The notes beneath the pieces were generated by a model. It had not been told where the DNA came from. It saw only the letters and a program-made list of their open reading frames with translations, and searched no databases. From a virus, in the IMG/VR virus record IMGVR_UViG_3300047564_005433, positions 1 through 64,000 of that record: a stretch of 64,000 nucleotides of DNA, one strand, 5' to 3'. Both the position numbers and the translations under genes were made by a program. Positions 6,437 through 42,574 of this stretch are shown piece after piece. The first letter of the stretch is position 1. Every line of letters starts with the position of its first letter.

Positions 6437-6625
6437 TCTTCCTCGATAATGCGGAAATCAGGATCGTTGCCTTTCTTTATCCATCGGCATTGATTTAGCT
6501 CAGGAAACACCAAGAAAAGCTTATCGTGGTGATTTTGTTCAACAATGGCAGTGGTGAGCTTAGTGCCAATCCGGCTTTTGCCTTTCTTGCTAATTGCAAG
6601 GATGTTAATAGCGTCTTGCATGGTT

Positions 6626-20919: not shown

Positions 20920-21107
20920 TGGAAACGCCCAATCTCACCACCTCCGAGTTTTATGCTCGCATGAAGCAAATGGATCTTGATGTGATTGATTGCCTTGATT
21001 CTTTCCTTTTGGATACTGGCGTAGGCGTTGCTGGGCTGCGTCTTTCGTTCAGCAAAGAAAGCGAAGAATATCTTCTTGATTGGCACTTCGTTTTTCCTGA
21101 AGAATGA
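20916..21107 (+). CDS. Hypothetical protein
   Basis: Coupled ORF. Confidence 0.55.
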   Translation: MMETPNLTTSEFYARMKQMDLDVIDCLDSFLLDTGVGVAGLRLSFSKESEEYLLDWHFVFPEE

Positions 21108-22042
21108 ACCACACTATCCTCACCTACTCCCCCTCCGACTTTTTCAGCATGGAAGACTCCGCAAAACAAGCAATGATGGACCGTTACAACGGCGTCTTCT
21201 CCCCCCTAGAGATCAGCGCTGAAGCTTTTAAGGCTGCTTACGACACACCTGACATTGGCCCCCACATTGAAAAGGACTACAAAGGCCTCTCCTATCTGTC
21301 GTGGCCGTTTGCCTTTCGCTATCTGAAGGAGCATTTCCCGACGTTGTTTGTAGCGTTTGAAGAGAAGACCATTGGCTGGCCCGTATTTGGCGAGCCTGGC
21401 GCCTTCATCCTTCGCCCCTATCTCACTGATGGAATCAAGCGCACGCCTGCGCTGGTGTTCCCCATCATGGACCGCAAGCACAATTCCATTCAACAGCTCG
21501 ATGGTCGTGCAATTAGCGACAACATCCAACGTGCCAGTGTCAAAGCCATCGCTACGTTCACGGGCCTTGGTCTTCGGCTCTATGCCGGAGAGGACATTCC
21601 TAAGGAGGAAGCGCCAAAGCTGCAGCAGGACACGCTCAAGACGCCTGCACGCACGAAGAGTGCCGCTAAGGAAAGCACTGCTGCTTCTGGAAGCGAGGGG
21701 CCTGTTGCCGCCGCTGATACAGGGTCCGCTGAACCCTTCGATGCAAAGGCAGCTCTTACGGCAGTGTGCAAAGCCAATCCTTTGAACTATGTCGACGAAA
21801 AAGCTTCTATGGCTGCAGGTAAAGCTGCTCTTGAAAGTATTGGACTTGCTCGCGCCACAGAAATCAAAAGCTGGCAAGCCTTCGGAAACGTCGTCGCAGC
21901 AATGATGACACTATGGGCTAAGCAAGAGCAAATTGTCATCAGCAAAGCTGAAATGACAGAAGAAATCAATGCCGTGCGTGGCCTTGAAGACACCAGTGCC
22001 ATTATTGAGGGGATGAAGGCTTTCGTGGCAAAAAAGAAATAG
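21104..22042 (+). CDS. Sak/Rad52-like single-strand annealing protein (DUF1071-like)
   Basis: LSYLSWPFA, PIMDRKHNSI and QRASVKAIATFTGLGLRLYAGEDIP motifs. Confidence 0.8.
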   Translation: MNHTILTYSPSDFFSMEDSAKQAMMDRYNGVFSPLEISAEAFKAAYDTPDIGPHIEKDYKGLSYLSWPFAFRYLKEHFPTLFVAFEEKTIGWPVFGEPGAFILRPYLTDGIKRTPALVFPIMDRKHNSIQQLDGRAISDNIQRASVKAIATFTGLGLRLYAGEDIPKEEAPKLQQDTLKTPARTKSAAKESTAASGSEGPVAAADTGSAEPFDAKAALTAVCKANPLNYVDEKASMAAGKAALESIGLARATEIKSWQAFGNVVAAMMTLWAKQEQIVISKAEMTEEINAVRGLEDTSAIIEGMKAFVAKKK

Positions 22043-22747: not shown

Positions 22748-23548
22748 GTGGCCTGTTACGATCTATGCCTAGCCTCCCTTCAAATGCAAGCATTTCCCCG
22801 TTACGAACCGAACCGGCTCCAAATTCAAAAGAAGCGTTATTATCATTTGAACGGTTTTCCAAATGTTCCCGAAGGGTATGTTTTGCCCTCTGTGACAACT
22901 ATTGCGAGCGCGTGTTCAGCGCCTGGCAAGATTGCAGCGCTAATGAACTGGCGAAAAAAGGTGGGCAATGAAGAAGCTAATCGTCGCACTCGTAATGCTG
23001 TGGATCGAGGCAATTGGCTTCACGGTGTTCTAGAAGATTTCTGGAATGGTGAAGACATTCAAGAGCATCTTGATTCTCACGAAAACTACGTGCCTTATTT
23101 TGAGAGCATTGTTGGTTTTCTTGAGCGCGTTGATAGTCCATTGCTCGTCGAAAGTGCCATTGCCTGGTACGATCCTGCGCAAGAAATTGGCTATTCAGGC
23201 ACCTTTGATATGCTCGCCAAAATGAACAGCGGGCAATATGCCCTGCTTGATTGGAAGACAAGCTATAAAGAGAAGCCTGATACACAGCTAGCCGACTATC
23301 GCATGCAGCTTGGTGCCTACGTTCAGGCCATTGAGCAGATGTATGACATTGAAGTTAATGAAGCACATTGTGCCATTGCCATCCACGATCCTGATACTGG
23401 CCATTCCCAAGAAGCGCAAATCGTGAGTCTCTCAGCGGGGGAGCTTGCCATGCAGGCGGGCATCATGGTGCAGAAGGTGCAGCAGTTCTTCTTCGAGCAT
23501 TACCCAGGCGGACGCCCCTTAATGATTTCTATGGACCGAGGAGCTTAA
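22748..23548 (+). CDS. PD-(D/E)xK exonuclease
   Basis: PSVTTI, RGNWLH, YSGTFD, LLDWKTS and QLGAY motifs. Confidence 0.85.
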   Translation: MACYDLCLASLQMQAFPRYEPNRLQIQKKRYYHLNGFPNVPEGYVLPSVTTIASACSAPGKIAALMNWRKKVGNEEANRRTRNAVDRGNWLHGVLEDFWNGEDIQEHLDSHENYVPYFESIVGFLERVDSPLLVESAIAWYDPAQEIGYSGTFDMLAKMNSGQYALLDWKTSYKEKPDTQLADYRMQLGAYVQAIEQMYDIEVNEAHCAIAIHDPDTGHSQEAQIVSLSAGELAMQAGIMVQKVQQFFFEHYPGGRPLMISMDRGA

Positions 23549-28002: not shown

Positions 28003-28350
28003 ATGACTGACGCTGTGAATCATCCCCGTCATTACGCTAAAAATGGCGGCATTGAATGTATTGAGGCCATTGAAGCTTCAATGGACAAAGACGATTTCCG
28101 TGGCTTCCTCAAAGGGAACATTCAAAAATATGTTTGGCGTTATGAAGAAAAAAATGGCCTAGAAGATTTGAAGAAGGCCAGTTGGTATCTTGATCTTCTC
28201 ATCTTCAATATAGAAAGCGAGCCGCAACAAGAAGCCGTTGAAGCCCTTGAGAATGCTTCTATGGAATGCAAAGATGGATTCTGTCCAATGCCTGGAATTC
28301 GCTATGACCTTCCTGGAAAGCAAATCACTTTTGCCCCAGTAGAAGGCTAA
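28003..28350 (+). CDS. DUF3310-family protein
   Basis: [37 protein letters not shown]. Confidence 0.85.
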
Positions 28351-28829
28351 GCAGCACTACAACAAAGCCCCCACAAGGGGGCTTTTTCATGCTCAATTTT
28401 TTGGTGCATCGGCAGGACAATCCCTTTCTTTTCGCACCACTCCTCAAGATGCTTTTGGTCAGTGTGAGCGCTAACAAAGCTATTGCAATACACCCACGCC
28501 ATCACAATTTCCTCTCGTTGCTCCGTCCAAAAAGGTTGCACTCGCCACCATTCAAGCATCGGCAAGTCTCCCTTCTTGAGATTACAGCTCTTACATGCCG
28601 GAAGCATGTTCCAGCGCGAGAAGTGTGGGCCGCCTTTGCTCTTGGGAACAATGTGATCAATCGTAAGCTTTTCTCCCCATTCTCCGCAATAAGCGCAAGC
28701 GCATTGCCCAAATGGTCCCCTCAAAAAATAGTCTTCAAAAATACTCTTACGGAATCTACGTTTTGCATCACCAGGGCGAAGTTCAATGAGAGAATAAAGC
28801 AGCTCATCAGGACCATTCGCTCTAAGCAT
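28347..28829 (-). CDS. HNH endonuclease
   Basis: [31 protein letters not shown]. Confidence 0.85.
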
Positions 28830-29303: not shown

Positions 29304-30248
29304 ATGTGGCCTTCAAATCGGGCTTTCTGGGACGAATGCTTCCAGACAGCCCGTAAATATGGTGCTCGCTATCCTGAGCTTGTGGCAGCACAATGCTGCC
29401 TAGAGAGTGGCTTTGGTAAGCACACGTCTGGTAAGCATAACTACATCGGCGCCAAAGGCGAAGGCACTACTACCACCACTCAAGAATTTTACGATGGTCA
29501 GTGGGTGACTATCAAAGCTGGTTTTATTGATTTTCCTAGCCTTGCTGCTTGCATTGAATACTTAGTTACGCGCTGGTATAAAGACTATCGTCAATTCAAG
29601 GGCATTAATCATGCTCCCAATCGTTACGCTGCGGCACGAATGCTCAAGGAGCAAAGCTATGCCACTGATCCGGCGTATCCAGCAAAATTGTCTAAGCTCA
29701 TGAAGGAATATGCTCCTGAGAGCACTGCTGTTACTATGATCGGCCCCAAGAAACGTCCGCAAGATTTTGGCTTCAAGAAAGGCGATTCGCATTTGATTGT
29801 GAATGATGCCGTTGAGACCATGAAAGCTTTCTCTTTTGAAGGGAAGCTTCTATGGGAAATCCCTTGTCTTGCTCGCGGACAATACAGTGATTTTGAATGG
29901 AAGATTAAAAATTCTGACTGTCCTCCTGGTCTGTACAAGATCGGCGCCATCTACAAAGACTACGAGCGAGTGGGTGATAAGCCTGCCTATGATCGTACGC
30001 TCATGGCTTACGGCTGGTATAGCTTTGACATGGTGGAACTAGAGAATCAGGAAGCTAAATATGGCCGTGCAGGAATTATGGTCCACGGTGGATCCAGCGC
30101 CCTTGGATGGCCTGGAGCTTGGGCGCCAAACCAAGCGCTTATGCCAACTCACGGCTGTTGTCGCTGTAAAAATATTGATCTTCGCGATAAAATTTTGCCT
30201 CTCACTAAAACTGGCACAGTATATATTTCAGTTTTTCAGGAAGGCTGA
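29304..30248 (+). CDS. Endolysin: GH73 glucosaminidase + L,D-transpeptidase-like domain
   Basis: AQCCLESGFG, NYIGAKG, YATDPAY; C-terminal IMVHGG..PTHGCCR. Confidence 0.85.
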   Translation: MWPSNRAFWDECFQTARKYGARYPELVAAQCCLESGFGKHTSGKHNYIGAKGEGTTTTTQEFYDGQWVTIKAGFIDFPSLAACIEYLVTRWYKDYRQFKGINHAPNRYAAARMLKEQSYATDPAYPAKLSKLMKEYAPESTAVTMIGPKKRPQDFGFKKGDSHLIVNDAVETMKAFSFEGKLLWEIPCLARGQYSDFEWKIKNSDCPPGLYKIGAIYKDYERVGDKPAYDRTLMAYGWYSFDMVELENQEAKYGRAGIMVHGGSSALGWPGAWAPNQALMPTHGCCRCKNIDLRDKILPLTKTGTVYISVFQEG

Positions 30249-30652
30249 TGAATTGGCAGTCTTGGTTTAATGCTCTTTGCTACGAACTAGGCTTATGGGC
30301 CGCCTCAAAGCGGCCTTCTCTTGCTCTTCAGCCATGGTTCAAGCAATTAATGGCTTGGTGCAGGCCTGACTGGGCAGAGTGGAAAACCAAAGGCGTCATG
30401 CAGAAAGTTGACCAGCAAGCAAAAACGCTGGTTAAACAATGGGAAGAAGAGGAACGAGAATCAAAAGCAAATGCCCTTGCATGGGAAGCCCACAAGCTTT
30501 TTCCTGGTGCCATCGTCACGCCCCTTCCAGATGCCATTGTTCCATCAGTGCTCATTGAAACAGCCCCACCAGCGAACGCTAGTGAGGCCGTGAAAGCCCT
30601 TGGCGGTGAGCTAAGAATCACCTATCGCTTGCCAGACCAAGGAGAGTCCTGA
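30248..30652 (+). CDS. Hypothetical protein
   Basis: Coupled to the endolysin. Confidence 0.55.
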   Translation: MNWQSWFNALCYELGLWAASKRPSLALQPWFKQLMAWCRPDWAEWKTKGVMQKVDQQAKTLVKQWEEEERESKANALAWEAHKLFPGAIVTPLPDAIVPSVLIETAPPANASEAVKALGGELRITYRLPDQGES

Positions 30653-30856
30653 GGCGCTTCCATTTAGCAAGCTCCTTCTCGTGATAATCCTCCCACGAAG
30701 CGATGGTTTCGCTAAGAGCCTTGCAGGCCATAGCCGGATCATCGTCCGTTAGCAGCTCTGCAAGAATGTCGGAGAGACCCTCGGTCTGCTGCTTGTACCA
30801 TTCGCCCTCTGCAACAAAAGGAAAGGCCATGGGAAGGGGCATATTGCCCCCATAGC

Positions 30857-32080
30857 TTAAGTGATTTCCACCCAGCCGATCATGCCAAGTGCTTTAGCGC
30901 TGACTGCACTATCGACGGTCAAGATGAGAGTGTCGCTTTCGCCAGAAGCATTTTGCCCTAGGGCAAGACGAATGGCCACTGCAATGTCGTAATTATTCGC
31001 ACTGCCTTGACTGACAAAACCTGCGTCAACCACTGTGCCGCCTGTGGCAGTACCACTAGTTGTCACTTCCACATTGCCCCTTTGATTGTCCGCAGCACTC
31101 CAAGTGACGTCACTCAGTGTTGGATTTAAACGCAAACGCCACAACACCACATCACTAGAAGCAGTGGCAGTAGAAATTCTTACGGGGAGAATAACATTAC
31201 CAGTGCGACCACTTGCCATGCGAATACCAGCGGTGATGCGCTCCCCAGATGTATTTGGAACAGTGCTTAAATCGTGATTCACTGAATACACGGCGCCATC
31301 TGGCTCATATCCCCCCTCGCTAAGAATGCTGCTACAAATTTGCTTCATGGTGCGTCCTGAAGCTTGAGCGGAAGCATTGTGAATGCGATAGGACAATGGC
31401 AAAATAGCCGTTGTCATATATGCGCTAGTCAGTGTGTTGTAGTGATTGAATTCATGGCAATAAATGATCTCGCCGTTAATTACAAAGCCAGTCCTCACTC
31501 GCCCCACGCCAAGCCATTCAAGATCGGCAGTGAAAATCTGAGCTTTAGAGAAGTCGAGCGAATCAAGAGTGTTAATGTTCCACGCTGATTGATCAACTAC
31601 GTTTTCAACAACTGCGCCAGACGTGAAGCTTCTGATGACCATTTGCAACGTAGTACCACTTGCCCTAATCATCACTCCATTCTGGTCATCAAAGAAGCCC
31701 ACTTCTTGAATGAGACCTGCTGTTGGAGTGGTGCCAGCGAAGCTTTGCATGATCATCATGCTTTTTCCTGGTTGGTACGGGAAGTATTGCTTAGTTCTAC
31801 GCAGCACTGTATCGCCAGACGCAGTGGTGGTCGTCAAAGCAGTGCTGCTTTCGTTTGTTAAATACGTGACCACGCCTCCATTGGACACGCGATCAAACCA
31901 TTGGTCAGCACGCTTGTTGTAACGCATCGTGCTATCAAAAAGCGTATAGGGAGCGCTCGTGCGAGCACGCCCAAAAGCATCAACTGCTCCACTATCAGGG
32001 CCTGTCTTTAAAATCTGCCCGCGATAATCAGATTGAATGTGAGTTTCAAACTGTTCGCCCCCAGCAATTATTTGTCCCAT
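30857..32080 (-). CDS. Putative virion structural protein (beta-sandwich/lectin-like)
   Basis: DAFGRAR, YQPGKS, EWLGVGRVR motifs; Thr/Ser-rich. Confidence 0.6.
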   Translation of the reverse strand: MGQIIAGGEQFETHIQSDYRGQILKTGPDSGAVDAFGRARTSAPYTLFDSTMRYNKRADQWFDRVSNGGVVTYLTNESSTALTTTTASGDTVLRRTKQYFPYQPGKSMMIMQSFAGTTPTAGLIQEVGFFDDQNGVMIRASGTTLQMVIRSFTSGAVVENVVDQSAWNINTLDSLDFSKAQIFTADLEWLGVGRVRTGFVINGEIIYCHEFNHYNTLTSAYMTTAILPLSYRIHNASAQASGRTMKQICSSILSEGGYEPDGAVYSVNHDLSTVPNTSGERITAGIRMASGRTGNVILPVRISTATASSDVVLWRLRLNPTLSDVTWSAADNQRGNVEVTTSGTATGGTVVDAGFVSQGSANNYDIAVAIRLALGQNASGESDTLILTVDSAVSAKALGMIGWVEIT

Positions 32081-32140
32081 GGAAAAGAATGCTTTCTTTC
32101 ATTGTACTAGCAAAAGAAAAGAGGCCTTTCGGCCTCTTGA

Positions 32141-32272
32141 TTATTTGCCTTGTCCTCGCGGAAGCTTTCGACCGTGCGAAGCTTTACTATTTGCTCCATT
32201 GCCTTGGCGCGTGCGCTTGCTTTTATTTGGCTGATGAAGCTTTTGCCCGTTAATGGTTTTGCTTGATGCCAT
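32141..32272 (-). CDS. Small basic protein ending RGQGK
   Basis: 43 aa, translated by hand; KRTRQG..RGQGK pattern seen in cyanophages. Confidence 0.6.
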   Translation of the reverse strand: MASSKTINGQKLHQPNKSKRTRQGNGANSKASHGRKLPRGQGK

Positions 32273-32583
32273 CAGGACCAGGGCACTCCAGTGCCATTAG
32301 TGGGAGTGCGCTGTTGAGAAATTTGCTCTGCGAGAGCGGCTTCAATTTCAGCCACTTTTTCGTCGCCAAACTTTTCCTTCACCCAACCAGTAACGATGTC
32401 CGGCGTAAGTTGCGCATAAGGAATTTCATCATCTTCGTCGGGAGCTTCAAGCCCAAGACTGCCATACGCCGAACTGGCATATGTGCCGTCATCAGCAGAA
32501 ATTGTATAATGAACCGTGTAGACGATTCCATCAGCAAGGTGGCGCTCAAGATTGGCGACGCCCCATTGGTAAGTGATTGCCAT
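32272..32583 (-). CDS. Tail-fibre-associated protein
   Basis: WGVANLER..IPYAQLT..GVPW; commonly found after tail fibres. Confidence 0.6.
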   Translation of the reverse strand: MAITYQWGVANLERHLADGIVYTVHYTISADDGTYASSAYGSLGLEAPDEDDEIPYAQLTPDIVTGWVKEKFGDEKVAEIEAALAEQISQQRTPTNGTGVPWS

Positions 32584-32649
32584 GATTAAAAAGAATGGTC
32601 TTTGTTAGTTTAACAATGGAAAAGAAGGCGGCTTCTTCGGGAAACCGCC

Positions 32650-33504
32650 TCAAAGCACTGGCATCTCGTATTCCTGCGTGCTATTGCAATAGTGCTTGAA
32701 AATCACTTCGCTTGTATTGCCTGCCCAGTTGGCCACTTGTGGCACGGGAATGCCAGCTTCAATCCAGCGGCTAATAGCAGTGTGGCGACAATCATACGGC
32801 CTATAAACATGGGAAATTAGCCCTGCTTCATGCAGAGGCGAAAGCTTTTTCCTGAAATAGCTCTGAAAGGCAAGCCGATTCCATGGAAAAATAAATTCGT
32901 TTTCGCGAGGAAGCTCAGCAAGGATTTCTTGGCAACGAGCATTGATAGGCACCCAACGGCGCTTGTTGGTTTTCGTGCTGTTCTTTAAACCATGAGTGAG
33001 TGTATAGTTTTGGTGTACCAAAAGCTTATTTTCCTTAATATCGTCCCACTTGGCTGCCCTCACTTCTCCAGTGCGCATTGCAGTTTGCAACATAAATTCC
33101 GTGTACCAAGACCAATTAACATCGCGATAAGTTAGCTTCGCTTCTAATGCGGCAAGGACTAGGCCAGTTTCATTTCGAGGGATGACAACGATTTCCTCCT
33201 CGCGTTGAGGAGCCTTTGGCATTTTGAAGCTTGCCAATGGATTGCGAGCAACGATTGCCACGTCTTCTTGCGCCGCCCATTTGTACATAGTCTTGATGTA
33301 CATAGCAACGCGCCTTGAAGTGAGCACTGGCTTCTCTCCTAAAGCCCAAATCATTAATTTTCGTGCCTCGTTAATGTCTTGAATGGGGCAGCGAGCAAGC
33401 CATTTACCCACCTGCTTGTAGTCTGAAGTGAGACTGGTTGGACATAAAGAAATGGAGCGCTCTTCGACGAAGGCGCTCCAGAGGCTTGAGACAGTGGTGG
33501 TCAT
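32650..33504 (-). CDS. Tyrosine recombinase without arm-binding domain
   Basis: TAMRTGE (R), STKT (K), PYDCRHT, WAGN, KHY (Y); 284 aa. Confidence 0.9.
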   Translation of the reverse strand: MTTTVSSLWSAFVEERSISLCPTSLTSDYKQVGKWLARCPIQDINEARKLMIWALGEKPVLTSRRVAMYIKTMYKWAAQEDVAIVARNPLASFKMPKAPQREEEIVVIPRNETGLVLAALEAKLTYRDVNWSWYTEFMLQTAMRTGEVRAAKWDDIKENKLLVHQNYTLTHGLKNSTKTNKRRWVPINARCQEILAELPRENEFIFPWNRLAFQSYFRKKLSPLHEAGLISHVYRPYDCRHTAISRWIEAGIPVPQVANWAGNTSEVIFKHYCNSTQEYEMPVL

Positions 33505-33525
33505 GCTGGTCTTAAGAGGAGACTC

Positions 33526-33554
33526 AAGTTACCAGCTTTGCAAGGCCTTGTCAA
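33526..33554 (-). promoter_or_regulatory. Promoter of the recombinase
   Basis: TTGACA-N17-TAACTT on the minus strand. Confidence 0.6.
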
Positions 33555-33575
33555 GTCAAAGCCTTCTGGCTCTGG

Positions 33576-33839
33576 CTAAAGAATTGACAAGCCGCCCTTG
33601 TGATCCAGCCCCACTGTAAGAAAAACAGTGCGAGTCGTCTTAATGTCGCCCATGCTTTTCTTGAACTCTTCAGTTTCTTTTTCGGGATACTTTGGTTCGT
33701 ACTGCATGGTTTCCGGGTTCAAACGATTGCACTCGGCATCACCAAGGTGGTAGGTGTTGAGTGCTGCTTGTGCTTCTTTGATCTGCTCAGAGTCAAGACA
33801 AAACGACACTGGCACCTTAAAGGTTGCAATTAAATTCAT
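33576..33839 (-). CDS. Hypothetical protein between tail fibre and recombinase
   Basis: 87-aa ORF. Confidence 0.55.
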   Translation of the reverse strand: MNLIATFKVPVSFCLDSEQIKEAQAALNTYHLGDAECNRLNPETMQYEPKYPEKETEEFKKSMGDIKTTRTVFLTVGLDHKGGLSIL

Positions 33840-33966
33840 GGTTACTAGAGCAAGTGTCTTGCCACCTATAATAAGGTTTCACCCAGTGGCGTTACGATGC
33901 CGCTGCGCCCTCAGGCTTAGGTCTGGGGGCAATTTAATGCCTTGCCAGACCCAGAGGAGAAGGGGA

Positions 33967-36414
33967 CTAGGCGCTTTCGAAAACAGCAACTTTGGCCTGC
34001 AGCTCAGCAATCATTGCTTGCTGCTCCTGAATCGCCTTGATGCACAGCGACACCATGTTTCCGTAGGCAAGGGCATCTGGCGTACCATCATCCGCGTATT
34101 GGACAAACTCTTGCAAGCCAGCGGCATCCACTTCTTCAGCAATCAAGCCACCATAAACAGTATTGCCGTCAGATGCCGATTTTCCCTGATATGTAACTGC
34201 CCTCAACGCCATCAGCTCTTGTAGGCCGTATGGTGCGTCTTGAACGTTCTTCTTGTACTTCAAGGATGAAGTGCTTCTTTGAAGCTCACCTCCTGATGTG
34301 ACAAATAAGTTTGCCGCGCTAGCGGTTGTGTTGTTATAGGGAGAAAGTGTATCAGTTCCAGTCAGTATTACGCCATCGTTTCGGATAGTGAAGTGGACAA
34401 TGTCACCGCTTTCTGTAACCTCAAGAGAGTAAGCGCTTGAATCAGACGTCGAACCTTTAATCGTTGTTTTGCCGTTACTCGCAATCCTCATCCGCTCCGT
34501 CGGAGAACTCGCCCCATCCGCAGTAGTGGAGAACACTAATCTGCCTGGCATGTCGTTAGCGCCAGGGGTGCCGTCTACTTGGCATTGAATCACCGCAGCT
34601 TGCTTAAATCCTGTTCCATCGTTTCCTTCAATGGAAATATCCATCAATAAATCGTTATTACTGACGATGGTATTGCCACCGACAGAAGCATTTCTGCTCT
34701 TTTGAAAAACCAGGCCCGCGCCAGAAGTTGAATCAACAAAAGTAGCAAAATGTCCGACGCCATACGAACCGGCTACCTGCAAGTTTGCCAAATTGGACCA
34801 GTAGGGGCCGCTAAGCGCACTAGACGTACCAACCAAGAGCTGCCCCGAGTTTGAGATTCGGACTTTCTCGCTTGAATTGTTTGTGTACCAGATGTGTTCG
34901 CCTACATATCCTTGCGTCGCCGATCCAGTGATCTTGTATGCGTTTTGACCCGTATTAAAGGCGTCACTTCCTCTTGCTACTCCAAAGTCTCCATTGATAG
35001 AACTTACACTCCAGTTTTTGTAGTCCGTTGCAGCGTTCGTATCGGTAAGCCACAACAGACCGCCGTTGTTTGGAAAAGCATTTGCAGATGAACCTGCAAG
35101 CCGCAATACGCCTCTAGCGTCAGTAGTGCCAATCCCTACGTTGCCTGCGGAGTTGATTACCAACAAAGGTGTTGTGAACGTTGTCCCCCCTACAGCGGTA
35201 GATGGCGTGATCTCAAGTGCATTATCTACATTTTGTTGAGCGCCTATTTTCCAGTTATATTTTGTGCCTGTTCCATAAAAGATAGCCGCACCAGTATCGC
35301 CAGCATCATTTGATCCAATACTTACAACTGTTGCGCCGCCAGCAACGTGTAACTTTGAGCCAGGCGAACTAGTCCCCACGCCTACGAACCCTGCCGAGGT
35401 GATGCGCAGGCGTTCGGCGACTGTGCCCGCACCCGTGCGTGTCCGGAAATAAATAAAATCGCTGTTGAGTTCAAGAGGCGCGTAATCGCCTTGGTCGTTA
35501 TTAAGAGCCGAGACAATTCCGCCACCTCCTGCACTTCTGGCTGTTACCGCAAGACAGTCACCGCCCGAAGAAGCTTTAACGGCAAATAGATTAGCCGTTG
35601 GGCTACCTTGAACTTCAAAAGCATTGATAGGGTTTGCGGCAGCCACACCCACTCGCCCATTCGCATCCACAAACAACCTGCCAGACCCACCAGTGCTGAT
35701 GGCTACTTGGTCTGCACCGGGGGAGTAGATGCCGGTGTTGGTGTCGCCAGTGAATGCAATGGAAGGTGCAGCAGCACTACCACCTGCAGCGCTAAAAATG
35801 CCAGTGGTTTGAACTGTCTGGCTGCCGAAATCAGGACTAATCTTGGTGCCAGCAATGGCGGCGCTTGAATTAATATCTGCGTTGACGATGGTATCATTTC
35901 TAATCATCGTACTGGTCACTGTTTCACTATCACCAGTAGTGACAACGGTGCCGCTTACATTTGGCAAAGTAATAGTACGATCCGCTGTGGGATTGACAAC
36001 AGTCAAAGTGGTCTCAAAACCATCATCTACACTGCCTTCAAAAATAAGATCGGCAGAAGGCCCCATGGTCAAGGAGCCAGTCATGGTGTCGCCAGTAGAA
36101 TTTACAAATTCACCAGCTTCACTGCGCCATGCAGCGCCGTCCCAAATCTTGAAGACATAAGTGCCGCCACTGGTATCAAGCCATTGCTCGCCAAGGCTAT
36201 TACCAGCAGTGCCACCACTTGCAGGGCTAACATTAGGAGCCGTTGCTCCCACATGCACAGGCCCCACTTTTACTAGACTTCCATTGCTGTCCTTGAAAAA
36301 CATTCCAGGACTACCACTTGCATAGTTAATGGCAACTTGCCCATCAACCATGGAAGCAGGATTAGGACGCTTGTTAAGCGTCGATGAACGCAGATGCTGA
36401 AGAACACCAGCCAT
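33967..36414 (-). CDS. Modular tail fibre with C-terminal peptidase S74 chaperone
   Basis: Repeated ERxRI..GxVG(I/V)GT modules; TSSLKYKKNV..GLIAEEV..Y..L.KAIQE. Confidence 0.88.
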   Translation of the reverse strand: MAGVLQHLRSSTLNKRPNPASMVDGQVAINYASGSPGMFFKDSNGSLVKVGPVHVGATAPNVSPASGGTAGNSLGEQWLDTSGGTYVFKIWDGAAWRSEAGEFVNSTGDTMTGSLTMGPSADLIFEGSVDDGFETTLTVVNPTADRTITLPNVSGTVVTTGDSETVTSTMIRNDTIVNADINSSAAIAGTKISPDFGSQTVQTTGIFSAAGGSAAAPSIAFTGDTNTGIYSPGADQVAISTGGSGRLFVDANGRVGVAAANPINAFEVQGSPTANLFAVKASSGGDCLAVTARSAGGGGIVSALNNDQGDYAPLELNSDFIYFRTRTGAGTVAERLRITSAGFVGVGTSSPGSKLHVAGGATVVSIGSNDAGDTGAAIFYGTGTKYNWKIGAQQNVDNALEITPSTAVGGTTFTTPLLVINSAGNVGIGTTDARGVLRLAGSSANAFPNNGGLLWLTDTNAATDYKNWSVSSINGDFGVARGSDAFNTGQNAYKITGSATQGYVGEHIWYTNNSSEKVRISNSGQLLVGTSSALSGPYWSNLANLQVAGSYGVGHFATFVDSTSGAGLVFQKSRNASVGGNTIVSNNDLLMDISIEGNDGTGFKQAAVIQCQVDGTPGANDMPGRLVFSTTADGASSPTERMRIASNGKTTIKGSTSDSSAYSLEVTESGDIVHFTIRNDGVILTGTDTLSPYNNTTASAANLFVTSGGELQRSTSSLKYKKNVQDAPYGLQELMALRAVTYQGKSASDGNTVYGGLIAEEVDAAGLQEFVQYADDGTPDALAYGNMVSLCIKAIQEQQAMIAELQAKVAVFESA

Positions 36415-36486
36415 GATTAAAGCCTTTCGGAATTACAGGAGACTAATTAGTCTTTTGCAATTCTAAAAGGCTTTCTTTTCTAGTGA

Positions 36487-39400
36487 TTAGAACGTTCCTT
36501 CGTCAACAGTGGCATCAATGGTGCCAGCAGAGAAGTTACCGCTTGAATCGCGGGCAACAATTGCGCTAGCAGTGTTGGCACTAGTGGCAGTCGTTGCGCT
36601 ATTGCTAACCTTTCCAGCGGTGGAAATTGTACTGAGCTTAGTGTCGGCAATGCTGCCTGCAAGCATCGCATTTGTGACAGTGCCGCTATCTCCAGTGGTA
36701 ACAATGGTGCCAGTAGTGTCTGGCAGCGTAATCACCTTGTCCGATGTGGCATCAGCAGCGGCGAGTTGAATTTCAAAAGCATTGTCGGTGGCGCCTTCAA
36801 AAAGCAACGTGCCAGTGGTGCCAATAACCACTTCGCCAGTAATAGTGCCGCCTGCACGGGGCAATGCAGCATTGGCCAGGTCGTAAGCGCTCTTCACTGC
36901 AGTGGCAGTAGCTGCAAGCGTAGAACTTGTGGTGGACGTGCTGTCAGTAAGAATGACAGTACCACGAACGCTTGTTGTGGCATCTGGGATGGAAATAACT
37001 GGCGTGGTGGAGCCACTAACAACAGTGAGAGGAGCGTTCACACTCACTGAAAGAACAGTGCCACTTGCGGGCGTAGCCCATTTCACTCCAGTGCCAAGTG
37101 CTGAATCAGCCGTCAACACTTGTCCATTGGTACCAACTGCTTGCTTCAGTAGAACAGTGCCACTGCCAACAAGAAGATCACCTTTGGTATAAGCATTAAA
37201 GCTTGTGCCGCCATAGCCAATGGCAAGAATGCCACTCGCTACATTGTTTACATTCCTGCATTCAGTGCTAACTTCTTCAATTGCCGCTTGCACATTTCCT
37301 GCAGCAATGCCTGCGGCAGGCGAGAATGCAACTTGCGAGGCAGTCTGAGAAAGATAGGTGGAGCTAACGTCCACTTCCGTCCATGCCGTGCCATTGCAAA
37401 GCAAGATGTCCGGCGGTTGCAAAACAGTGGTAGGAGCTGGTGAAACGCCAGTACCTCCGCTGGAGACCACCACGTAATAGCGATTAAAAGTGGCCGATGG
37501 AGTGGGAAGTGGTTGTCCTACACTCAAGCCAACTGCTGCACCATCGCTACTTGTGCTGGCAATGGTATTTCCGCTTGCGTTATAAGTGCCAGCAAAAATA
37601 ATTTCGCCAACACTAATGCCAACTGGGTTCCAAACGTTACCATCCCACAGATAGAGATCTTTCTCCAATGGATTGAAGAAAAATTGTCCAATAAAATCAG
37701 CAACTGGCGGTGCTTCACCAAACTGACTTACGGAATAGTTTGCCAGTTTTGAAGCAAGAATGGAATCATCTGCAATTAAGCCACTGCCAAATGTGCCTGT
37801 CGTAATCTTGGAAGCAGGAAGAGAAGGAATGTCGTCTGCTACAAGAGACGTTTCGCCAGCATTAACGTGTCCTTCCGTATCTACCGTCACTTTGTAATAA
37901 GTGCCAGAAGCCACGCTGTTTGCGTGATTGAAGATGCCGCTAACAGTGACTAAGCCAGTACCAGCTTGTGCCACACCTAGTGCAGCAATGGTTGCCTTGG
38001 GAAGGTCATCAGCGGAGATAGCTCTAAAAGTCGGAGCAGCATCAGCACTGCCACTAGCTGGGCCAGCAAAGAAACGAGCAGCAACTTGCGTGTTTAAGGA
38101 AGGAACAATGGATGCACTAAATTCATCCGGGTAGGAAGTGGCAAAGCTATAAATAGTGTCGCCAGAAATAACCGTAGTAGAAAGGCCAGCTTGCCGCTGC
38201 CAAGTGCTTCCATTCCATGTGTATTCGTAGCCCGTACCAGTATTTAGCCATTGTTGGCCAATGAATTCACCGCTGCCCGTTGGCGTGGAACCAGCGACAA
38301 TGGCGGCAGAATTATCTGCCATCTTGACGCCAGTGACTGCTCCATTGGCAATCTTGGCAGTAATAACAGCGGCATCATTAATCTTCGCTGAAGTGACTGC
38401 AGAATTAGCAATGGTTGCAGCAAACGCTCCAGTGCCAGTGCCCGTCACGTCTCCAGAAAGAGTGATTGTTTGATCGCCAGTATTAGTGCCGGTGGAAGTG
38501 CCAGAGAAAGTGCCATCTTGAACGGCTAATGTGCCAAGTCCAAGCGTTTCTCTAATGTCTGCAATACTGGCATCGTCAAGGATAGAACGAGCAGCAGAAG
38601 TGCAAGCAATTTCTTCTACAGTGCCGCCGCTTGCGGAAAAGCGCCCAAGAATGACATCGCTAGAACTTGTGGATTGAATTTTGCTGTAGGAAACTGCCGC
38701 GTCAGCAATTTTGACAGCAGTAACGCCACTGTTGACAATCTTGGCAGTGGTAACTGAATCGCTGGCAAGCTTGGCATCCGTGATGTTTCCATCAGCAATC
38801 TTGATGGTGGTTACGCCACTGTCAGCAAGTTTTGCAGTGGTAATTGCACTGTCGGCAATATTCGCAGTGACAATGGAGGAGGAATCATAATCGCCGCTTC
38901 CAACTGTATTTTTTACAGCTAGCGAACCAAGGCCAAGCGTTGTACGTTGTGCGCCTGCATCAGCATCATCAAGAATGGCACGACCAGCAGCAGTGATTGC
39001 ACTAGTGGCGTAAGTGTCAGACGCAGTGGTATAAATGAGCTGACCAGATGCAGTGGTCAGTCCTGCAATTGAAGCCAGGGCGGAATCATAAGCCTGCACG
39101 TCAGTGCCAATAACCAAGCCAAGATTGGTGCGGGCGCCAGAAGCAGTAGATGCGCCTGTACCGCCGTCTGCAATGGCAAGATCAGTGATGCCACTGATAA
39201 TTCCCCCATTGATCGTGGCGTAAGAGATGGTGCCACTACTAAGCACTGCCGTGCCACCAGTGATTGCCACGCCAGAAGCAGCTTGCACTGCCATGGTGCC
39301 AAGGCCAAGTGTTGTACGCTGAGCAGCAGCATCGGCATCGTCCAGAAGCGCCCTACCAGCCTCAGTGAGCGTGATGCTTTCCACGTTGCCACTGCCAGCG

Positions 39401-41487
39401 GAAGCCCGACCAAGAAGCACGCCACTTGCTACTTGCTGGATCTTGGCGAACGTAACTGCATTGTCTGCAATGGCGGCGGTAGGAATGGAGCCGCTTGCAT
39501 AGCTTCCAGAGGGAATGGAGCTAGCAGTAATGACAGCGCCGGAAAGTTCTCCAGAAGAAAGACTTAACTTGCTAATGGTGACAGCACCAGATGCAATCTT
39601 TGCAGTAGTAATTCCGCTATCAACGAGCTGTGCAGTATTGACACTGCCGCTTGCCATCTTGGCGAGAGTTACGGCGGAATCGACAATGTTGATTGTGGCA
39701 ACGGATCCGCTGGACAGCTTTTCTTGGGTGACTCCGCTATTGACTAGTTGGCTCGTTCCAACACTGTTACTCGCCATCTTGGCAAGCGTTACAGCAGCAT
39801 CAACAAGATTAACGGTATCAACAGCGCCACTAGAGAGTTTCGACTGGGTGATGCCGCTATCAACGATATTTGCAGTTGCCACTGCATTCGCTGCCAGTTT
39901 GGCTTGAGTGACGCCACTGTTGACCAAATTGATGGTATTGACGCTATCGGCTGCAAGCTTTGCAAAAGTGACGCCACTATCAACTAAATTAATAGTTGCC
40001 ACTGCATCGGCAGCAAGTTTCGCTTGGGTGATTCCGCTGTTGACAATGTTGATTGTCGCCACCGCGTCAGTGGCAAGTTTTGCCTGGGTGACGCCACTAT
40101 CAACAAGCTGAGAAGTGTCAATGCTATTGCTTGCCATTTTGGCAAGCGTCACCGAAGCATCAATAATATTAATGGTATCAATGGACCCACTCGCCAACTT
40201 GGCTTGTGTGATGCCGCTATTGACAATCTGAGAAGTGCCAACACTATTGCTTGCTAATTTTGCAATCGTTACAGAGGAATCGACGATATTGACGGTATCC
40301 ACAGCTCCGCTAGAAAGCTTTGCCTGAGTGATGCCACTATCGACAATATTGACAGTAGCAACGCTGCCAGAAGCAAGCTTTGCCTGAGTGATGCCACTAT
40401 CAACTACATTGACAGTTGCCACGGCATTTGCAGCCAGCTTAGCTTGAGTGACGCCACTGGCAACAATCTGAGCAGTATCAACGCTATTGCTCGCCATTTT
40501 GGCGAGCGTAACGCTACTGTCAACAAGATTAATCGTTGCGATTGCTCCACTTGCAAGCTTTGCTTGAGTGACGCCGCTATCAACTAATTGAGCAGTGCCA
40601 ACACTGCCACTGGCCATTTTTGCAATGGTAACGGCGCTATCAACAATATTGATTGTCGCCACTGCATCGCTTGCTAGCTTTGCCTGCGTAACACCACTAT
40701 CAATAAGATTGACAGTGCCAACGCTATTTGCAGCAAGTTTGTTTTGAGTGATGCCACTATCGGCAATATTGGTGGTGCCAACTACGCCACTTGCTAGCTT
40801 GGCTTGCGTAACACTGCCGTCAACAATTTGAATGGTTCCAACAGAGTTGGAAGCCATTTTTGCCAGCGTAATACCACTAGCAGCCAAATGAACAGTGTCA
40901 ATGGCGCCAGCGCTTACATTGGCGCCAGTAATACCACTAGTTTGAATTTTGGCAGAAGTTACGGCGCCATCAAGGATTTTTACAGTTTCTACTGCATCGC
41001 TAGCAAGCTTGCCAGCAGTAATGGCAAGATTGTTTATTTTGCCGGTGGTAACACTGAGGTCTTCAAGGAGAGACGTGTTAATTGTATTGCCAGTGGCAAC
41101 CACCCCAAGTTCAAGCGTTGAACGAGCAGCAGCAGCATCCGCATCGTCAAGAAGCGTGCGAATGTAAACCGTACAATCAATCTCCTCTACATCACCAAGA
41201 GACGTGCCGCGACCCAGTAATTTATTGGCACTTACTTGCTGGATTTTGTCGTAAGTGAGAGTATTGGCAGCAATGGAAGAACCAGTTAATTTTGCCGCAC
41301 TGCCTTGATTGATCTTGGAAATATCGAGCGTTGAAGCATCAGCAAGATTAAAGCCTGCCTGAATCAGGCTCTTTACTTGCACCTTCTTGGTTTGATTGGC
41401 GCTAACGTCTGCAATAGGCAATACGTCGTTTGAAGCTACGCCTCCCTGAGGAAGTTCGACGAGTTCCGTAATTCTTTGATCGGCCAT
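36487..41487 (-). CDS. Long tail fibre/virion protein with decapeptide repeats
   Basis: Dozens of (A/S)VxTxx(I/L)xD/SGVTQAKLA units; 1666 aa. Confidence 0.8.
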   Translation of the reverse strand: MADQRITELVELPQGGVASNDVLPIADVSANQTKKVQVKSLIQAGFNLADASTLDISKINQGSAAKLTGSSIAANTLTYDKIQQVSANKLLGRGTSLGDVEEIDCTVYIRTLLDDADAAAARSTLELGVVATGNTINTSLLEDLSVTTGKINNLAITAGKLASDAVETVKILDGAVTSAKIQTSGITGANVSAGAIDTVHLAASGITLAKMASNSVGTIQIVDGSVTQAKLASGVVGTTNIADSGITQNKLAANSVGTVNLIDSGVTQAKLASDAVATINIVDSAVTIAKMASGSVGTAQLVDSGVTQAKLASGAIATINLVDSSVTLAKMASNSVDTAQIVASGVTQAKLAANAVATVNVVDSGITQAKLASGSVATVNIVDSGITQAKLSSGAVDTVNIVDSSVTIAKLASNSVGTSQIVNSGITQAKLASGSIDTINIIDASVTLAKMASNSIDTSQLVDSGVTQAKLATDAVATINIVNSGITQAKLAADAVATINLVDSGVTFAKLAADSVNTINLVNSGVTQAKLAANAVATANIVDSGITQSKLSSGAVDTVNLVDAAVTLAKMASNSVGTSQLVNSGVTQEKLSSGSVATINIVDSAVTLAKMASGSVNTAQLVDSGITTAKIASGAVTISKLSLSSGELSGAVITASSIPSGSYASGSIPTAAIADNAVTFAKIQQVASGVLLGRASAGSGNVESITLTEAGRALLDDADAAAQRTTLGLGTMAVQAASGVAITGGTAVLSSGTISYATINGGIISGITDLAIADGGTGASTASGARTNLGLVIGTDVQAYDSALASIAGLTTASGQLIYTTASDTYATSAITAAGRAILDDADAGAQRTTLGLGSLAVKNTVGSGDYDSSSIVTANIADSAITTAKLADSGVTTIKIADGNITDAKLASDSVTTAKIVNSGVTAVKIADAAVSYSKIQSTSSSDVILGRFSASGGTVEEIACTSAARSILDDASIADIRETLGLGTLAVQDGTFSGTSTGTNTGDQTITLSGDVTGTGTGAFAATIANSAVTSAKINDAAVITAKIANGAVTGVKMADNSAAIVAGSTPTGSGEFIGQQWLNTGTGYEYTWNGSTWQRQAGLSTTVISGDTIYSFATSYPDEFSASIVPSLNTQVAARFFAGPASGSADAAPTFRAISADDLPKATIAALGVAQAGTGLVTVSGIFNHANSVASGTYYKVTVDTEGHVNAGETSLVADDIPSLPASKITTGTFGSGLIADDSILASKLANYSVSQFGEAPPVADFIGQFFFNPLEKDLYLWDGNVWNPVGISVGEIIFAGTYNASGNTIASTSSDGAAVGLSVGQPLPTPSATFNRYYVVVSSGGTGVSPAPTTVLQPPDILLCNGTAWTEVDVSSTYLSQTASQVAFSPAAGIAAGNVQAAIEEVSTECRNVNNVASGILAIGYGGTSFNAYTKGDLLVGSGTVLLKQAVGTNGQVLTADSALGTGVKWATPASGTVLSVSVNAPLTVVSGSTTPVISIPDATTSVRGTVILTDSTSTTSSTLAATATAVKSAYDLANAALPRAGGTITGEVVIGTTGTLLFEGATDNAFEIQLAAADATSDKVITLPDTTGTIVTTGDSGTVTNAMLAGSIADTKLSTISTAGKVSNSATTATSANTASAIVARDSSGNFSAGTIDATVDEGTF

Positions 41488-41563
41488 CTCTCAAAAAGGC
41501 AGGGCTAAATACAGTCTAGTCTCTCTCGATAATAGCTATTATTGCCCGCTGCTCTTTGCCTTG

Positions 41564-42574
41564 TTAATCCACCACTTCTTTTAACAGGTAATCAAGGCCC
41601 TGTTCAAGGTAAATGGCATCATAATCTTCCTTCAGAATGTACTCTGCAGGCACTCCCACTCGAATTTTGAATTCTCCAGTGGTAACAAAGTCAACAGAAC
41701 ACGCCACCAACGCATCGGAAGTAACAGTGACGCCTGCTCTTGTTACCACTGCTTCAATATCGTAATAAACTTCCTCCCTAAAGCCTGGCGTTTCTTCTGT
41801 AGAGGATATGGCAAGTAAAGCCTTAAAGCTGCTTCCCACGTCCAGGCGGTTAATCACTTGTAACAGAAATAGCGGTATGTCTTGGTTTGCTACTGTTTCA
41901 TAGCTAAACAAGCATTCAATGCTTCCATTGCCACTTAACAAGCCAGCCGAATACTGCTGCTTAAAGCGATCAGACAAACTCGTTGTCTCCATCGCAGCCC
42001 TGTCCGTATTAATCTCAAATGATGTGACAGAACCAAGTGTATTGTATCTAGTGTCTCTTACGCCCACTGTAATATCAATGGGTTCGCCATAAAAGTCTGC
42101 TAAAGCATATTCGCTTGCCCTTTCATTATTCACTGCATCGGCAAAAGTGGGAAACAAGCGAATGCCTCCCACTGCATTAATGTGGGCATAAGCCGTTAAG
42201 CTATTTGCAATGACATAATCACTGAGCCTAAACTCGTCATATCCTGCAGGCGGTAAATCGCTACTGGTGCTAATTTCATCATCTAACCACCCCGCCAATC
42301 CAGCGGTGCTTCCCGAAGACCATACCACTGCGCTATAGCCATCAACATCCTGTCCAGGTATGTCCCAAAATGTGGCAGGCATAAACAAAAGACCTCTTGG
42401 ATCTTCTGTTGAAATCTCAAGGAAATCTCCTGTGATTAAATTATTATCGCTCCCATCAAAACTAAAGCGATTTAATAGTGTGTTTACATCGCTAGCGGAA
42501 ACAGTGGCCGTGAAAGTGTTCTCGCCCCCTCGCTGAAGCTTGATAGCGCCTGTGTGGCCAACAAAAAACGTCAT
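41564..42574 (-). CDS. Tail tube-like structural protein
   Basis: VTSFEINTDRAAMETTSL...SVDFVTTG, related to the neighbouring tube-fold gene. Confidence 0.6.
   Translation of the reverse strand: MTFFVGHTGAIKLQRGGENTFTATVSASDVNTLLNRFSFDGSDNNLITGDFLEISTEDPRGLLFMPATFWDIPGQDVDGYSAVVWSSGSTAGLAGWLDDEISTSSDLPPAGYDEFRLSDYVIANSLTAYAHINAVGGIRLFPTFADAVNNERASEYALADFYGEPIDITVGVRDTRYNTLGSVTSFEINTDRAAMETTSLSDRFKQQYSAGLLSGNGSIECLFSYETVANQDIPLFLLQVINRLDVGSSFKALLAISSTEETPGFREEVYYDIEAVVTRAGVTVTSDALVACSVDFVTTGEFKIRVGVPAEYILKEDYDAIYLEQGLDYLLKEVVD

Follow-up and report, generated by a model that had tools for sequence, protein, structure and literature searches.

The window analysed here, of 64,000 nt, corresponds to positions 1-64000 of a phage genome (IMG/VR record IMGVR_UViG_3300047564_005433) that is complete, at 73,391 bp, and carries terminal repeats; the runs containing its sequence are mostly labelled as freshwater or lake-water metagenomes. 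On its minus strand lies a tail-fibre gene of 815 aa in which short DNA words recur, in one reading frame, at the joints between modules, and these words are the subject of this study. The open reading frame (ORF) is predicted to encode a tail fibre of the S74 type, on the basis of its C-terminus and of a repeated shaft with a capping-loop motif. The protein matches phrog_18345 (3e-70) and phrog_9942 (8e-64); no Pfam family was matched when the whole 815-aa protein was scanned, and the last 137 aa scanned alone matched Peptidase_S74 (PF13884; 24.1 bits against a cut-off of 22, E 4.4e-5). Peptidase_S74 is an endosialidase-type intramolecular chaperone. The motif copies of the fibre align to the fibre structures 8OND_A (1.1e-6) and 8OML_A (0.0038), which are Bdellovibrio MAT fibres. 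An earlier sequence-only reading had proposed that a site of the form TAG-N9-CTA marks the module junctions and the stop of this gene, that its arms are constrained at the DNA level, and that it allows receptor-binding modules to be swapped by in-frame recombination without an invertible segment or a diversity-generating retroelement (DGR). The features of the gene and of its 3' flank are as follows.

33967..36414, minus strand: tail-fibre gene, 815 aa, predicted S74 type, with an N-terminal anchor, repeated shaft modules, a tip and a C-terminal chaperone.
36070..36414 (coding-sequence (cds) nt 1-345), minus strand: N-terminal anchor block, with 84-92% DNA identity to 14 loci, all stopping at cds nt 338-345.
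35656..35748 (cds nt 667-759), minus strand: island D, containing ...GDTNTGIYSPGADQVAISTGG...; it holds site D (35691-35705).
35359..35417 (cds nt 998-1056), minus strand: island C, AERLRITSAGFVGVGTSSPG; it holds site C (35370-35384).
35123..35152 (cds nt 1263-1292), minus strand: island B, SAGNVGIGTT, with the 17-nt word GTAGGGATTGGCACTAC; it holds site B (35124-35138).
34810..34844 (cds nt 1571-1605), minus strand: island E, GQLLVGTSSALS; it holds site E (34821-34835).
34477..34578 (cds nt 1837-1938), minus strand: island A, DGTPGANDMPGRLVFSTTADGASSPTERMRIAS; it holds site A (34524-34538).
33967..34476, minus strand: tip and S74 chaperone module, from island A to the stop codon, apparently swapped as a unit.
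33874..33954, minus strand: 81-nt element just 3' of the fibre stop, likely a right-hand homology arm and/or terminator.

Exact copies of TAG-N9-CTA were found in the fibre gene at sites A, B and C, and sites D and E each depart from it by one arm base; the sequences and positions given in the sequence-only reading were therefore correct. All of the sites sit on the non-coding strand of the ORF, and the five in-gene sites are all in the same codon phase (offset 1), lying over the peptides LVFST (A), VGIGT (B), VGVGT (C), VAIST (D) and LVGTS (E). The TAG arm arises where (G/T)TA precedes a codon beginning with G, and the CTA arm where ACT precedes an A. A sixth position, site F (33955-33969), has only CTA in common with the others, and this CTA is the complement of the TAG stop codon of the fibre gene. 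A degenerate copy of the motif, RVGVA, at 35641-35655 was absent from the earlier list of sites.

In the whole window TAG-N9-CTA is not enriched: its four occurrences compare with an expectation of 6.19 ± 2.53, and a count of at least four was seen in 82 of 100 shuffles. Within the fibre gene the excess is marginal (three against 0.73 ± 0.83 in synonymous-codon shuffles, with 62 of 2000 reaching three), and GTA and ACT are common codons in this gene (19 of 64 Val and 27 of 80 Thr, respectively). At larger scale, the best 80 of 241 relatives (262 candidate viral-contig stretches) together with isolate S-H1 yielded 70 distinct fibre ORFs besides that of the window. These 70 homologous ORFs (138 kb) contain 123 copies of TAG-N9-CTA, against 53.3 ± 6.7 from synonymous shuffles (maximum 74 in 200), and 117 of the 123 lie in the same codon phase. 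Of all 64 patterns that pair XYZ with its reverse complement across N9, TAG-N9-CTA has the top z value in the homologues (11.1), followed by TTG-N9-CAA (6.3); the shuffles count related ORFs as independent, so that these z values are inflated and are upper bounds. Since it is enriched across the 70 homologues, although not in the window, TAG-N9-CTA is a real signature of this fibre gene family, which the window alone cannot demonstrate.

Synonymous codons at the motif are conserved in the homologues. Among 67 instances of [VIL]G[IVL]GT, codon 1 is GTA, TTA or CTA in 53, codon 5 is ACT in 53 and the next base is A in 53, and the full site is present in 39. Instances of the LVFST type carry xTA in 13 of 15, ACT in 13 of 15 and the full site in 12, and those of the VAIST type carry GTA in 23 of 28, ACT in 26 of 28 and the full site in 18; the background in homologous fibre ORFs is 33% for GTA and 37% for ACT. 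The DNA-level constraint proposed for the arm codons thus stands for the homologues, but it is not specific to the TAG and CTA arms. Inside each class, fixation is as strong in the middle codons as in the arms (GCC, ATC and ACT of VAIST each in 21 of 21; GGT, CTG, GGG and ACT of LGLGT each in eight of eight), and most codons are 75-100% fixed in the classes VAIST (21 contexts), LVFST (14), LGLGT (8) and LVGTS (25). By a hand count of about 31 distinct VGIGT instances, one 15-mer accounts for 14 and a second for six. Examples of the words are GTA GGG ATT GGC ACT AC, GTA GGC ATA GGG ACT AGT TCG CCT and TTA GGT CTG GGG ACT AGT AGC CCT, as well as GTA GCC ATC ... ACT and CTA/TTA GTG TTC TCC ACT ACT. 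The rare codon GGG makes up 40% of the Gly codons of the motif against 8% in the background, and codon homozygosity is raised for only about seven codons on each side of the core, returning to background at about eight.

The stretches shared between genes measure at least 30 nt at B, about 35 nt at E, 59 nt at C, 93 nt at D and about 100 nt at A. Because the middle codons are fixed like the arms and the shared stretches extend over 30-100 nt, the TAG-N9-CTA palindrome is not the functional unit; judged from these alignments, the conserved unit is a DNA word of 17-100 nt rather than a small palindrome. The arms measure just 3-4 bp (TAG/CTA, or GTAG/CTAC with a following Thr-Thr) around a non-palindromic middle, unlike a classical recombinase core, whose inverted arms reach some 10 bp or more and enclose a short spacer. 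TAG-N9-CTA arises incidentally from the word, namely from Val GTA or Leu xTA followed by G, and then Thr ACT or Ser TCT followed by A.

The 17-nt word of site B occurs exactly in at least 124 viral-contig stretches with unrelated flanks. Among the matches listed, the same frame is open in 114 of 116 instances with full flanks, and the 114 distinct sequences listed present at least 105 upstream and at least 109 downstream 10-aa contexts. A different picture was given by viral contigs at large, where 246 listed codings of the peptide GNVGIGTT (loci L082-L233) use GTA in 77, GTT in 77, GTC in 73 and GTG in 19, and for Thr use ACT in 82, ACG in 79, ACA in 65 and ACC in 20; the 17-nt word itself accounts for three of the 246. 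Since codons vary freely in this general sample, the peptide does not demand these codons, and their fixation belongs to one gene pool. Several general-sample contigs carry many copies with one coding. Furthermore, in the same sample GTA pairs with ACT and GTT with ACA (40/21 against 18/34, Fisher p 0.0013). The codings hint that each fibre gene or phage pool may homogenise its own joint word.

The conserved motifs flank variable segments, such that five short islands lie between modules without DNA similarity among relatives. In blastn comparisons of the gene with its relatives, blocks of 95-98.6% identity cover cds nt 997-1292 (locus L001), 998-1293 (L006) and 1045-1294 (L038), and all three stop at the end of the word at site B; beyond the 17-nt word identity is random. 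Conversely, the blocks of L010 (cds nt 1263-1641) and L011 (1265-1605) start at site B, where these two loci show no relation upstream of the word and 90-98% identity downstream of it. Thus, at island B, the 98% blocks of L001, L006 and L038 end at cds nt 1292-1294 and those of L010 and L011 begin at 1263-1265. Islands C and E behave similarly: the L001 and L006 blocks begin at cds nt 997-998 at island C, where isolate 7B11-B is 91% identical, and at island E a second L001 block opens at cds nt 1571 and that of L011 closes at 1605, with S-H1, DSL-LC07 and S-LBS1 90-93% identical over 29-30 nt. Island D has short DNA matches of 78-97% to many loci and to the isolates S-CBP1, S-LBS1, S-H1 and DSL-LC07, and its blocks stop at cds nt 759, immediately before the degenerate copy RVGVA. 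Island A is 95.1% identical over 102 nt to the podoviruses 7B11-B and WH11-B, and 80-98% identical to many loci and isolates. Base-by-base alignments show that identity drops to random within a few bases at the junctions. Module number also varies, L006 having two copies of island C 589 nt apart and the window one.

An all-against-all comparison of 71 ORFs (blocks of at least 90% identity and at least 100 nt) gave 82 block endpoints, of which 26 lie no more than 15 nt from a motif core (5.6 ± 2.3 at random, maximum 14 in 1000 trials), with blocks starting 12-36 nt before the core and ending at its 3' edge. The remaining 56 endpoints lie elsewhere; in the window gene, for example, cds nt 338-345, 449 and 759 are boundaries without TAG-N9-CTA, the first of these being the boundary of the anchor block, at which no such site was found. 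The site is therefore not required for a boundary. All five in-gene sites, together with the position just past the stop, coincide with mosaic boundaries. The proposal that TAG-N9-CTA marks module junctions holds in so far as junctions do lie at the sites, but the unit is the longer word and some boundaries have no site.

Compared with the complete relative behind L011, island A is 95.5% identical, the gene from cds nt 1934 to the stop has no DNA similarity, and identity of 97.3% over 412 nt resumes 2 nt past the stop (33554-33965). A contig of run X6 spans exactly 33957-34531. The 81-nt element within this flank is 97.5% identical to the stretch directly 3' of the fibre gene of S-H1 (L011 92%, L022 81%), and its RNA is predicted to fold into a strong hairpin (-43.8 kcal/mol, z -2.6). 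Scans of the window for tRNAs and Rfam families found nothing, which ruled out a recognisable tRNA fragment or a known RNA as the identity of the element. Because of the conserved 3' flank, including this element, the sixth position is a real boundary, as had been claimed for the half site at the stop; the half site itself is merely the stop codon beside the flank. The tip module would be exchanged between island A and this conserved flank.

The arrangement of the modules in natural samples was examined with Logan contigs of four runs aligned on 33500-36500, which cannot reveal rare variants; runs X6 and X7 gave identical figures and were counted once. The pieces of run X5 run from site to site (34553-34840, 34833-35139, 35123-35386 and 35389-35686, the first two meeting in island E and the last two at 35386/35389 in island C), as do the X6 contig mentioned above and a second X6 piece at 34549-34840. 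Run X1, the likely source run, breaks at 34483-34576, at 35123-35151, where contigs overlap exactly over island B, and at 35712-35715 in island D, at which contig breaks and depth peaks were likewise observed. Word depth peaks on the islands: at island A (34510-34610) it reaches 479 against about 28 in X1 and 8953 against 34 in X5. The module depths in X5 are 34, 6.6, 19 and 304 and, because these differ, the modules cannot all sit in the same genomes; modules occur independently of one another in natural samples. The mean depths in X1 are 28.5 (33500-35151), 20.7 (35123-35715) and 23 (35712-36500), which suggests either that the middle modules vary in the population or that the window gene was assembled in part as a chimera. 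Contigs linking one island directly to another were considered as deletions but were not used, as their matching sides measure 21-41 nt and possibly come from other phages.

Seven clonal Synechococcus phage genomes have fibre genes that are alike only in the islands (24-105 nt, 80-100%), also when compared with the window. TAG-N9-CTA in phase 1 was found in seven of the seven isolates and at these motifs in six. Because clonal isolates carry the islands, a pure assembly artefact is ruled out for the islands, although the sharpest junctions still rest on metagenome contigs. In 50,697 phage records, all DNA matches to islands A-D were to Synechococcus phages or cyanophages (26/26, 5/5 and 6/6 records), and the phages concerned include podoviruses and large-genome (167-207 kb) phages.

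These observations are probably best explained by in-frame crossover on short homology, in which the fixed DNA words join and exchange fibre modules. The fibre would be a predicted trimer of the S74 type with modules of about 80-107 aa, each introduced by a joint peptide of the form ...R-I-x-S-x-G-x-(V/L)-G-(I/V/L)-G-T-(T/S)-S-P... or one of its variants VAIST, LVGTS and LVFST. In the pool of Synechococcus-type cyanophages these joints would be encoded by a few fixed words of 17-100 nt and, since fibre genes with no other relation have the words in identical form, these would serve as in-frame crossover points. General recombination during co-infection would then exchange, add or remove modules between words. 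According to passages of PMC10769870, loops of this kind act as caps at beta-helix domain edges in S74 fibres of the Bdellovibrio MAT type, and a crossover at a joint would therefore unite whole domains in frame. The pathway would most plausibly be the phage's own Sak annealing protein with an exonuclease, or host RecA, and two candidate genes lie on the plus strand of the window.

21104..22042, plus strand: Sak-type single-strand annealing protein (phrog_8492, 1.9e-47; SSAP_Sak PF06378, 5.7e-19, 68.6 bits against a cut-off of 22.3).
22748..23548, plus strand: PD-(D/E)XK exonuclease, predicted partner of the annealing protein (phrog_298, 2.9e-45; PF12705, 34 bits against a cut-off of 22).

The nuclease gene lies two genes downstream of the Sak gene. 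In the parts of PMC3945230 that concern short homology, the minimal efficient pairing segment is given as 23-27 bp for Red-beta and 31-34 bp for RecA, and Rad52-like phage recombinases, the family in which Sak is placed, are described as driving mosaics on short diverged homology. The island stretches, of at least 30 nt, exceed the Red-beta minimum given there. From the role of such fibres, exchange would be expected to alter host range, and the identity of the words may be either selected or maintained by the exchange itself. The idea of in-frame recombination sites that enable module swapping is thus borne out by the boundaries and by conservation at the DNA level, whereas neither a palindromic recombinase site nor a dedicated enzyme is indicated. 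In agreement with the further claim that neither an invertible segment nor a DGR is involved, the complete 73,391-bp genome gave no match to reverse transcriptase PF00078 (control genomes matched) and none to the resolvase-family invertase PF00239 (12 control genomes matched). Overall, the earlier observation was confirmed in part at the sequence level, and the interpretation given to it is partly supported.

Several points weigh against crossover at the words. Between the window and its close relative L011 the islands are 84-95% identical and the backbone 88-93%, i.e. the islands are no more conserved. The recent blocks of 95-98% come mostly from metagenome-assembled contigs, which are possibly chimeric at such shared repeats, and the seven isolates have no long recent blocks, their similarity being confined to the islands. 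The exchange is read from sequence comparison and contigs, and the shuffle statistics ignore the relatedness of the ORFs. In addition, the crossover point is unresolvable inside an island, so that homologous and site-specific exchange give the same picture. Finally, four classes of word have the same arms in the same phase, and simple descent would need the synonymous sites of the arms to outlast amino-acid change in the middle. The common arms and the GTA-ACT pairing may stem from descent from one ancestral repeat or from repeat copies within genes; a preference at the sequence level is also possible. It is conceivable, though unlikely, that the words are selected universal adaptors, i.e. in-frame linkers kept identical at synonymous sites across sipho-, podo- and large-genome phages of picocyanobacteria so as to give a community-wide library of modules, with arms (xTA-G ... 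xCT-A) that might also be read by a nicking or homing endonuclease or a recombinase raising exchange.

Several other explanations were considered. The words could result from protein constraint, shared ancestry and codon bias, alignments simply ending where conservation does. The joint peptide is indeed a widespread structural motif, GTA and ACT are common codons, synonymous shuffles alone yield 53 sites in the homologues, and the island identity of the isolates, mostly 80-90%, is near what an identical peptide alone would give. However, identity of 98% falls to random in a few bases, the partners on the two sides being different, a siphovirus and podoviruses with nothing else in common in 24 kb are 95% identical over the 102 nt of island A, GGG is enriched in the motif as described above, one 17-mer is found in at least 105 different peptide contexts, and module depths are unequal within one sample; this explanation is therefore regarded as unlikely. 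It is rather improbable that the words are kept for another reason at the nucleic-acid level (TAG stops out of frame or antisense, a translational pause at the joints or mRNA structure), with recombination as a by-product. In all four word classes the arms do create TAG, both in the +1 sense frame and in an antisense one, the joint is enriched in rare GGG codons, and the GTA-ACT pairing of the general sample exceeds GTT-ACT. Against this, that pairing may reflect copies repeated inside the same gene, fixation within a class extends to the middle codons as much as to the arms, and free codon variation in the general sample means that nothing universal is tied to the peptide. A mosaic that is largely an artefact of short-read assemblers mis-joining phages at shared repeats would accord with islands that are repeats of at least 30 nt common to many co-occurring genomes, with the unequal contig depths under the gene in the likely source run and with the metagenomic origin of the sharpest junctions. 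It is nevertheless very improbable, as clonal isolates also have these islands, with unrelated modules between them, contigs of different samples repeat the same junctions, and the Logan pieces break at islands rather than bridge them, with modules still very unequal in abundance within one run.

The remaining explanation is dedicated site-specific recombination, in which TAG-N9-CTA or the word would be the target of an enzyme, in the manner of a shufflon. A candidate enzyme is encoded 460 nt downstream of the fibre gene.

32650..33504, minus strand: tyrosine integrase downstream of the fibre gene (Phage_integrase, 1.9e-12; phrog_1, 1e-36).

The best matches of this recombinase among 2068 plasmid records are mainly to Escherichia and Salmonella conjugative plasmids, and in the one IncI1/B/O record examined the matched gene stands directly after pilV and the shufflon (28.6% identity, 6e-10; 29% and 5e-17 in the pairwise comparison with the IncI1 enzyme). 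It is about as close, however, to ordinary phage integrases (23-26% identity, E to 2e-13), it is 80% identical to the integrase of S-LBS1 (Lake Bourget, freshwater), and a comparison with solved structures gave no match. All eight records that contain it, and isolate S-LBS1, have it no more than about 5 kb from the fibre word, and in the six read (five fetched stretches and S-LBS1), including records of about 40 kb, it is directly downstream of the fibre gene on the same strand. Nevertheless, it was found in just eight of 50 word-bearing records (three of the seven that are at least 90% complete) and was not found in five records searched, among them two complete genomes that carry the words, the relative behind L011 and isolate S-H1, from both of which it is absent at E <= 1e-3. 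The gene with 49 nt (32650-33553) forms a clean 904-nt insertion relative to the L011 record, and in one relative the fibre gene and the integrase gene are separated by 27 nt only. Four word classes do have the same arms, but these measure only 3-4 bp and some boundaries have no site, and all words are direct repeats in one ORF, with no spare cassettes; inverted copies of any word were found neither at 30000-42000 of the window nor in five recombinase-bearing relatives. The repeats of the shufflon read GTGCCAATCCGGTnnnTGG, and the plus strand at site B holds GTGCCAATCC, giving an identity of 10 nt at 35126-35135 to the core of the IncI1 repeat (plasmid NZ_MG825377.1); a second copy, GTGCCAATCCGG, gives 12 nt at 6563-6574. 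Matches with at most one mismatch number nine against 5.4 expected, and the identity is probably a coincidence. The second copy lies in unannotated sequence, where the minus strand would read R-I-G-T with the same codons, and is probably due to chance. The shufflon lead was followed and judged unlikely in view of the lack of inverted words and cassettes, the dispensable recombinase and its likeness to ordinary integrases. A dedicated site-specific system is therefore considered highly unlikely, and crossover on short homology at the words is retained as the probable mechanism.

The fibre gene is preceded upstream by a second fibre gene (1666 aa), a tape-measure gene and further tail genes, and is followed downstream by an 87-aa ORF, the tyrosine integrase and a virion protein. 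The second fibre gene (36487..41487, minus strand) is devoid of TAG-N9-CTA and contains an array of diverged repeats at 38300-41050 with spacings that are multiples of 30-60 nt, comprising a 300-nt unit repeated 12 times and a 75-nt unit repeated 17 times and ending in a Phage_fiber_2 repeat. The gap between the two fibre genes (36419-36474) is filled by a 28-nt inverted repeat without a spacer that is 82% complementary. Adjoining the integrase is a DUF7936 protein of 103 aa (6e-37; 32272-32583, minus strand), which is 52-67% identical in five integrase-bearing relatives and the region of which has 92.9% DNA identity in the integrase-less L011 record. Four genes of the HNH/endonuclease VII type, which are possible homing endonucleases, lie in the region of replication and nucleotide metabolism (3420-3779, 23551-24513, 27425-27985 and 28347-28829).

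The host range of a phage is set by its tail fibres, and both picocyanobacteria and the phages infecting them are of major importance in lakes and oceans. The present analysis gives sequence-defined joints, five in the shaft and an arm pair around the tip, with words that cross phage families, and the evolution of host range in these cyanophages becomes directly testable. The words explain why short-read assemblies break, or may mis-join, in these fibre genes, and chimeric fibres could be built in laboratory cyanophage systems by using them as natural in-frame junctions.

Among known systems, the IncI1/R64 shufflon (Rci, with sfx repeats in pilV) resembles the locus in having an adhesin gene followed by a tyrosine recombinase, short repeats within coding sequence and 10 nt equal to the sfx core. 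However, the locus lacks both inverted repeats and spare C-terminal segments, the words do not depend on the recombinase and, by our own reading, PilV reads the shufflon repeat on the other strand and in another frame than the fibre gene. The serine invertases Gin, Cin and Min and the DGRs likewise vary the receptor-binding end of fibres, whereas neither a resolvase-family gene nor a reverse transcriptase was found in the complete genome. Relaxed recombination of the Rad52-like type, as treated in the relevant parts of PMC3945230, is similar in that an annealing protein of the Sak group is combined with a nuclease and mosaics are bounded by short homology, and side tail-fibre genes were among the substrates tested with Rad52-like recombinases. 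That system concerns lambdoid phages of E. coli with homology of hundreds of bp, whereas the arms here measure 30-100 nt, in frame inside one ORF. The MAT/S74 fibres (Bdellovibrio Bd2133 and Bd3182, the T5 L-shaped fibre and the K1F endosialidase; PMC10769870) have the same repeated peptide, with which ERMRI..G.LGLGT..P..LHV aligns. As described in passages of that paper, they also combine a beta-helix shaft and its capping loops with variable tips and an S74 chaperone at the C-terminus. Unlike the present study, that work concerns protein architecture, and its recombination-related passages contain no DNA-level words or crossover points.

No description of these words or junctions in cyanophage fibres was found in the literature, with most subscription journals outside the coverage. 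The concept of recombination at conserved motifs has nevertheless been known since the work on T-even phages, and it is a known route by which phages vary the fibre that recognises the host. According to passages of PMC3157838, recombination between conserved motifs in the distal tail-fibre genes and gp38 adhesin genes of T-even phages produces chimeric adhesins (Tetart et al., 1996, 1998). The likeness is close, with conserved motifs flanking variable segments, junctions in or next to the motifs and a chimeric adhesin as the outcome. The differences, as far as the T-even system is covered there, are an S74-type beta-helix shaft in place of gp37/gp38, a GxVGIGT joint in place of His boxes and glycine-rich motifs, cyanobacterial hosts, and words that span sipho-, podo- and large-genome phages and are known here from sequences. 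Recombination at conserved motifs in T-even phages is the closest known system, and the cyanophage locus operates likewise, but with a different fibre family and with motifs and hosts of its own.

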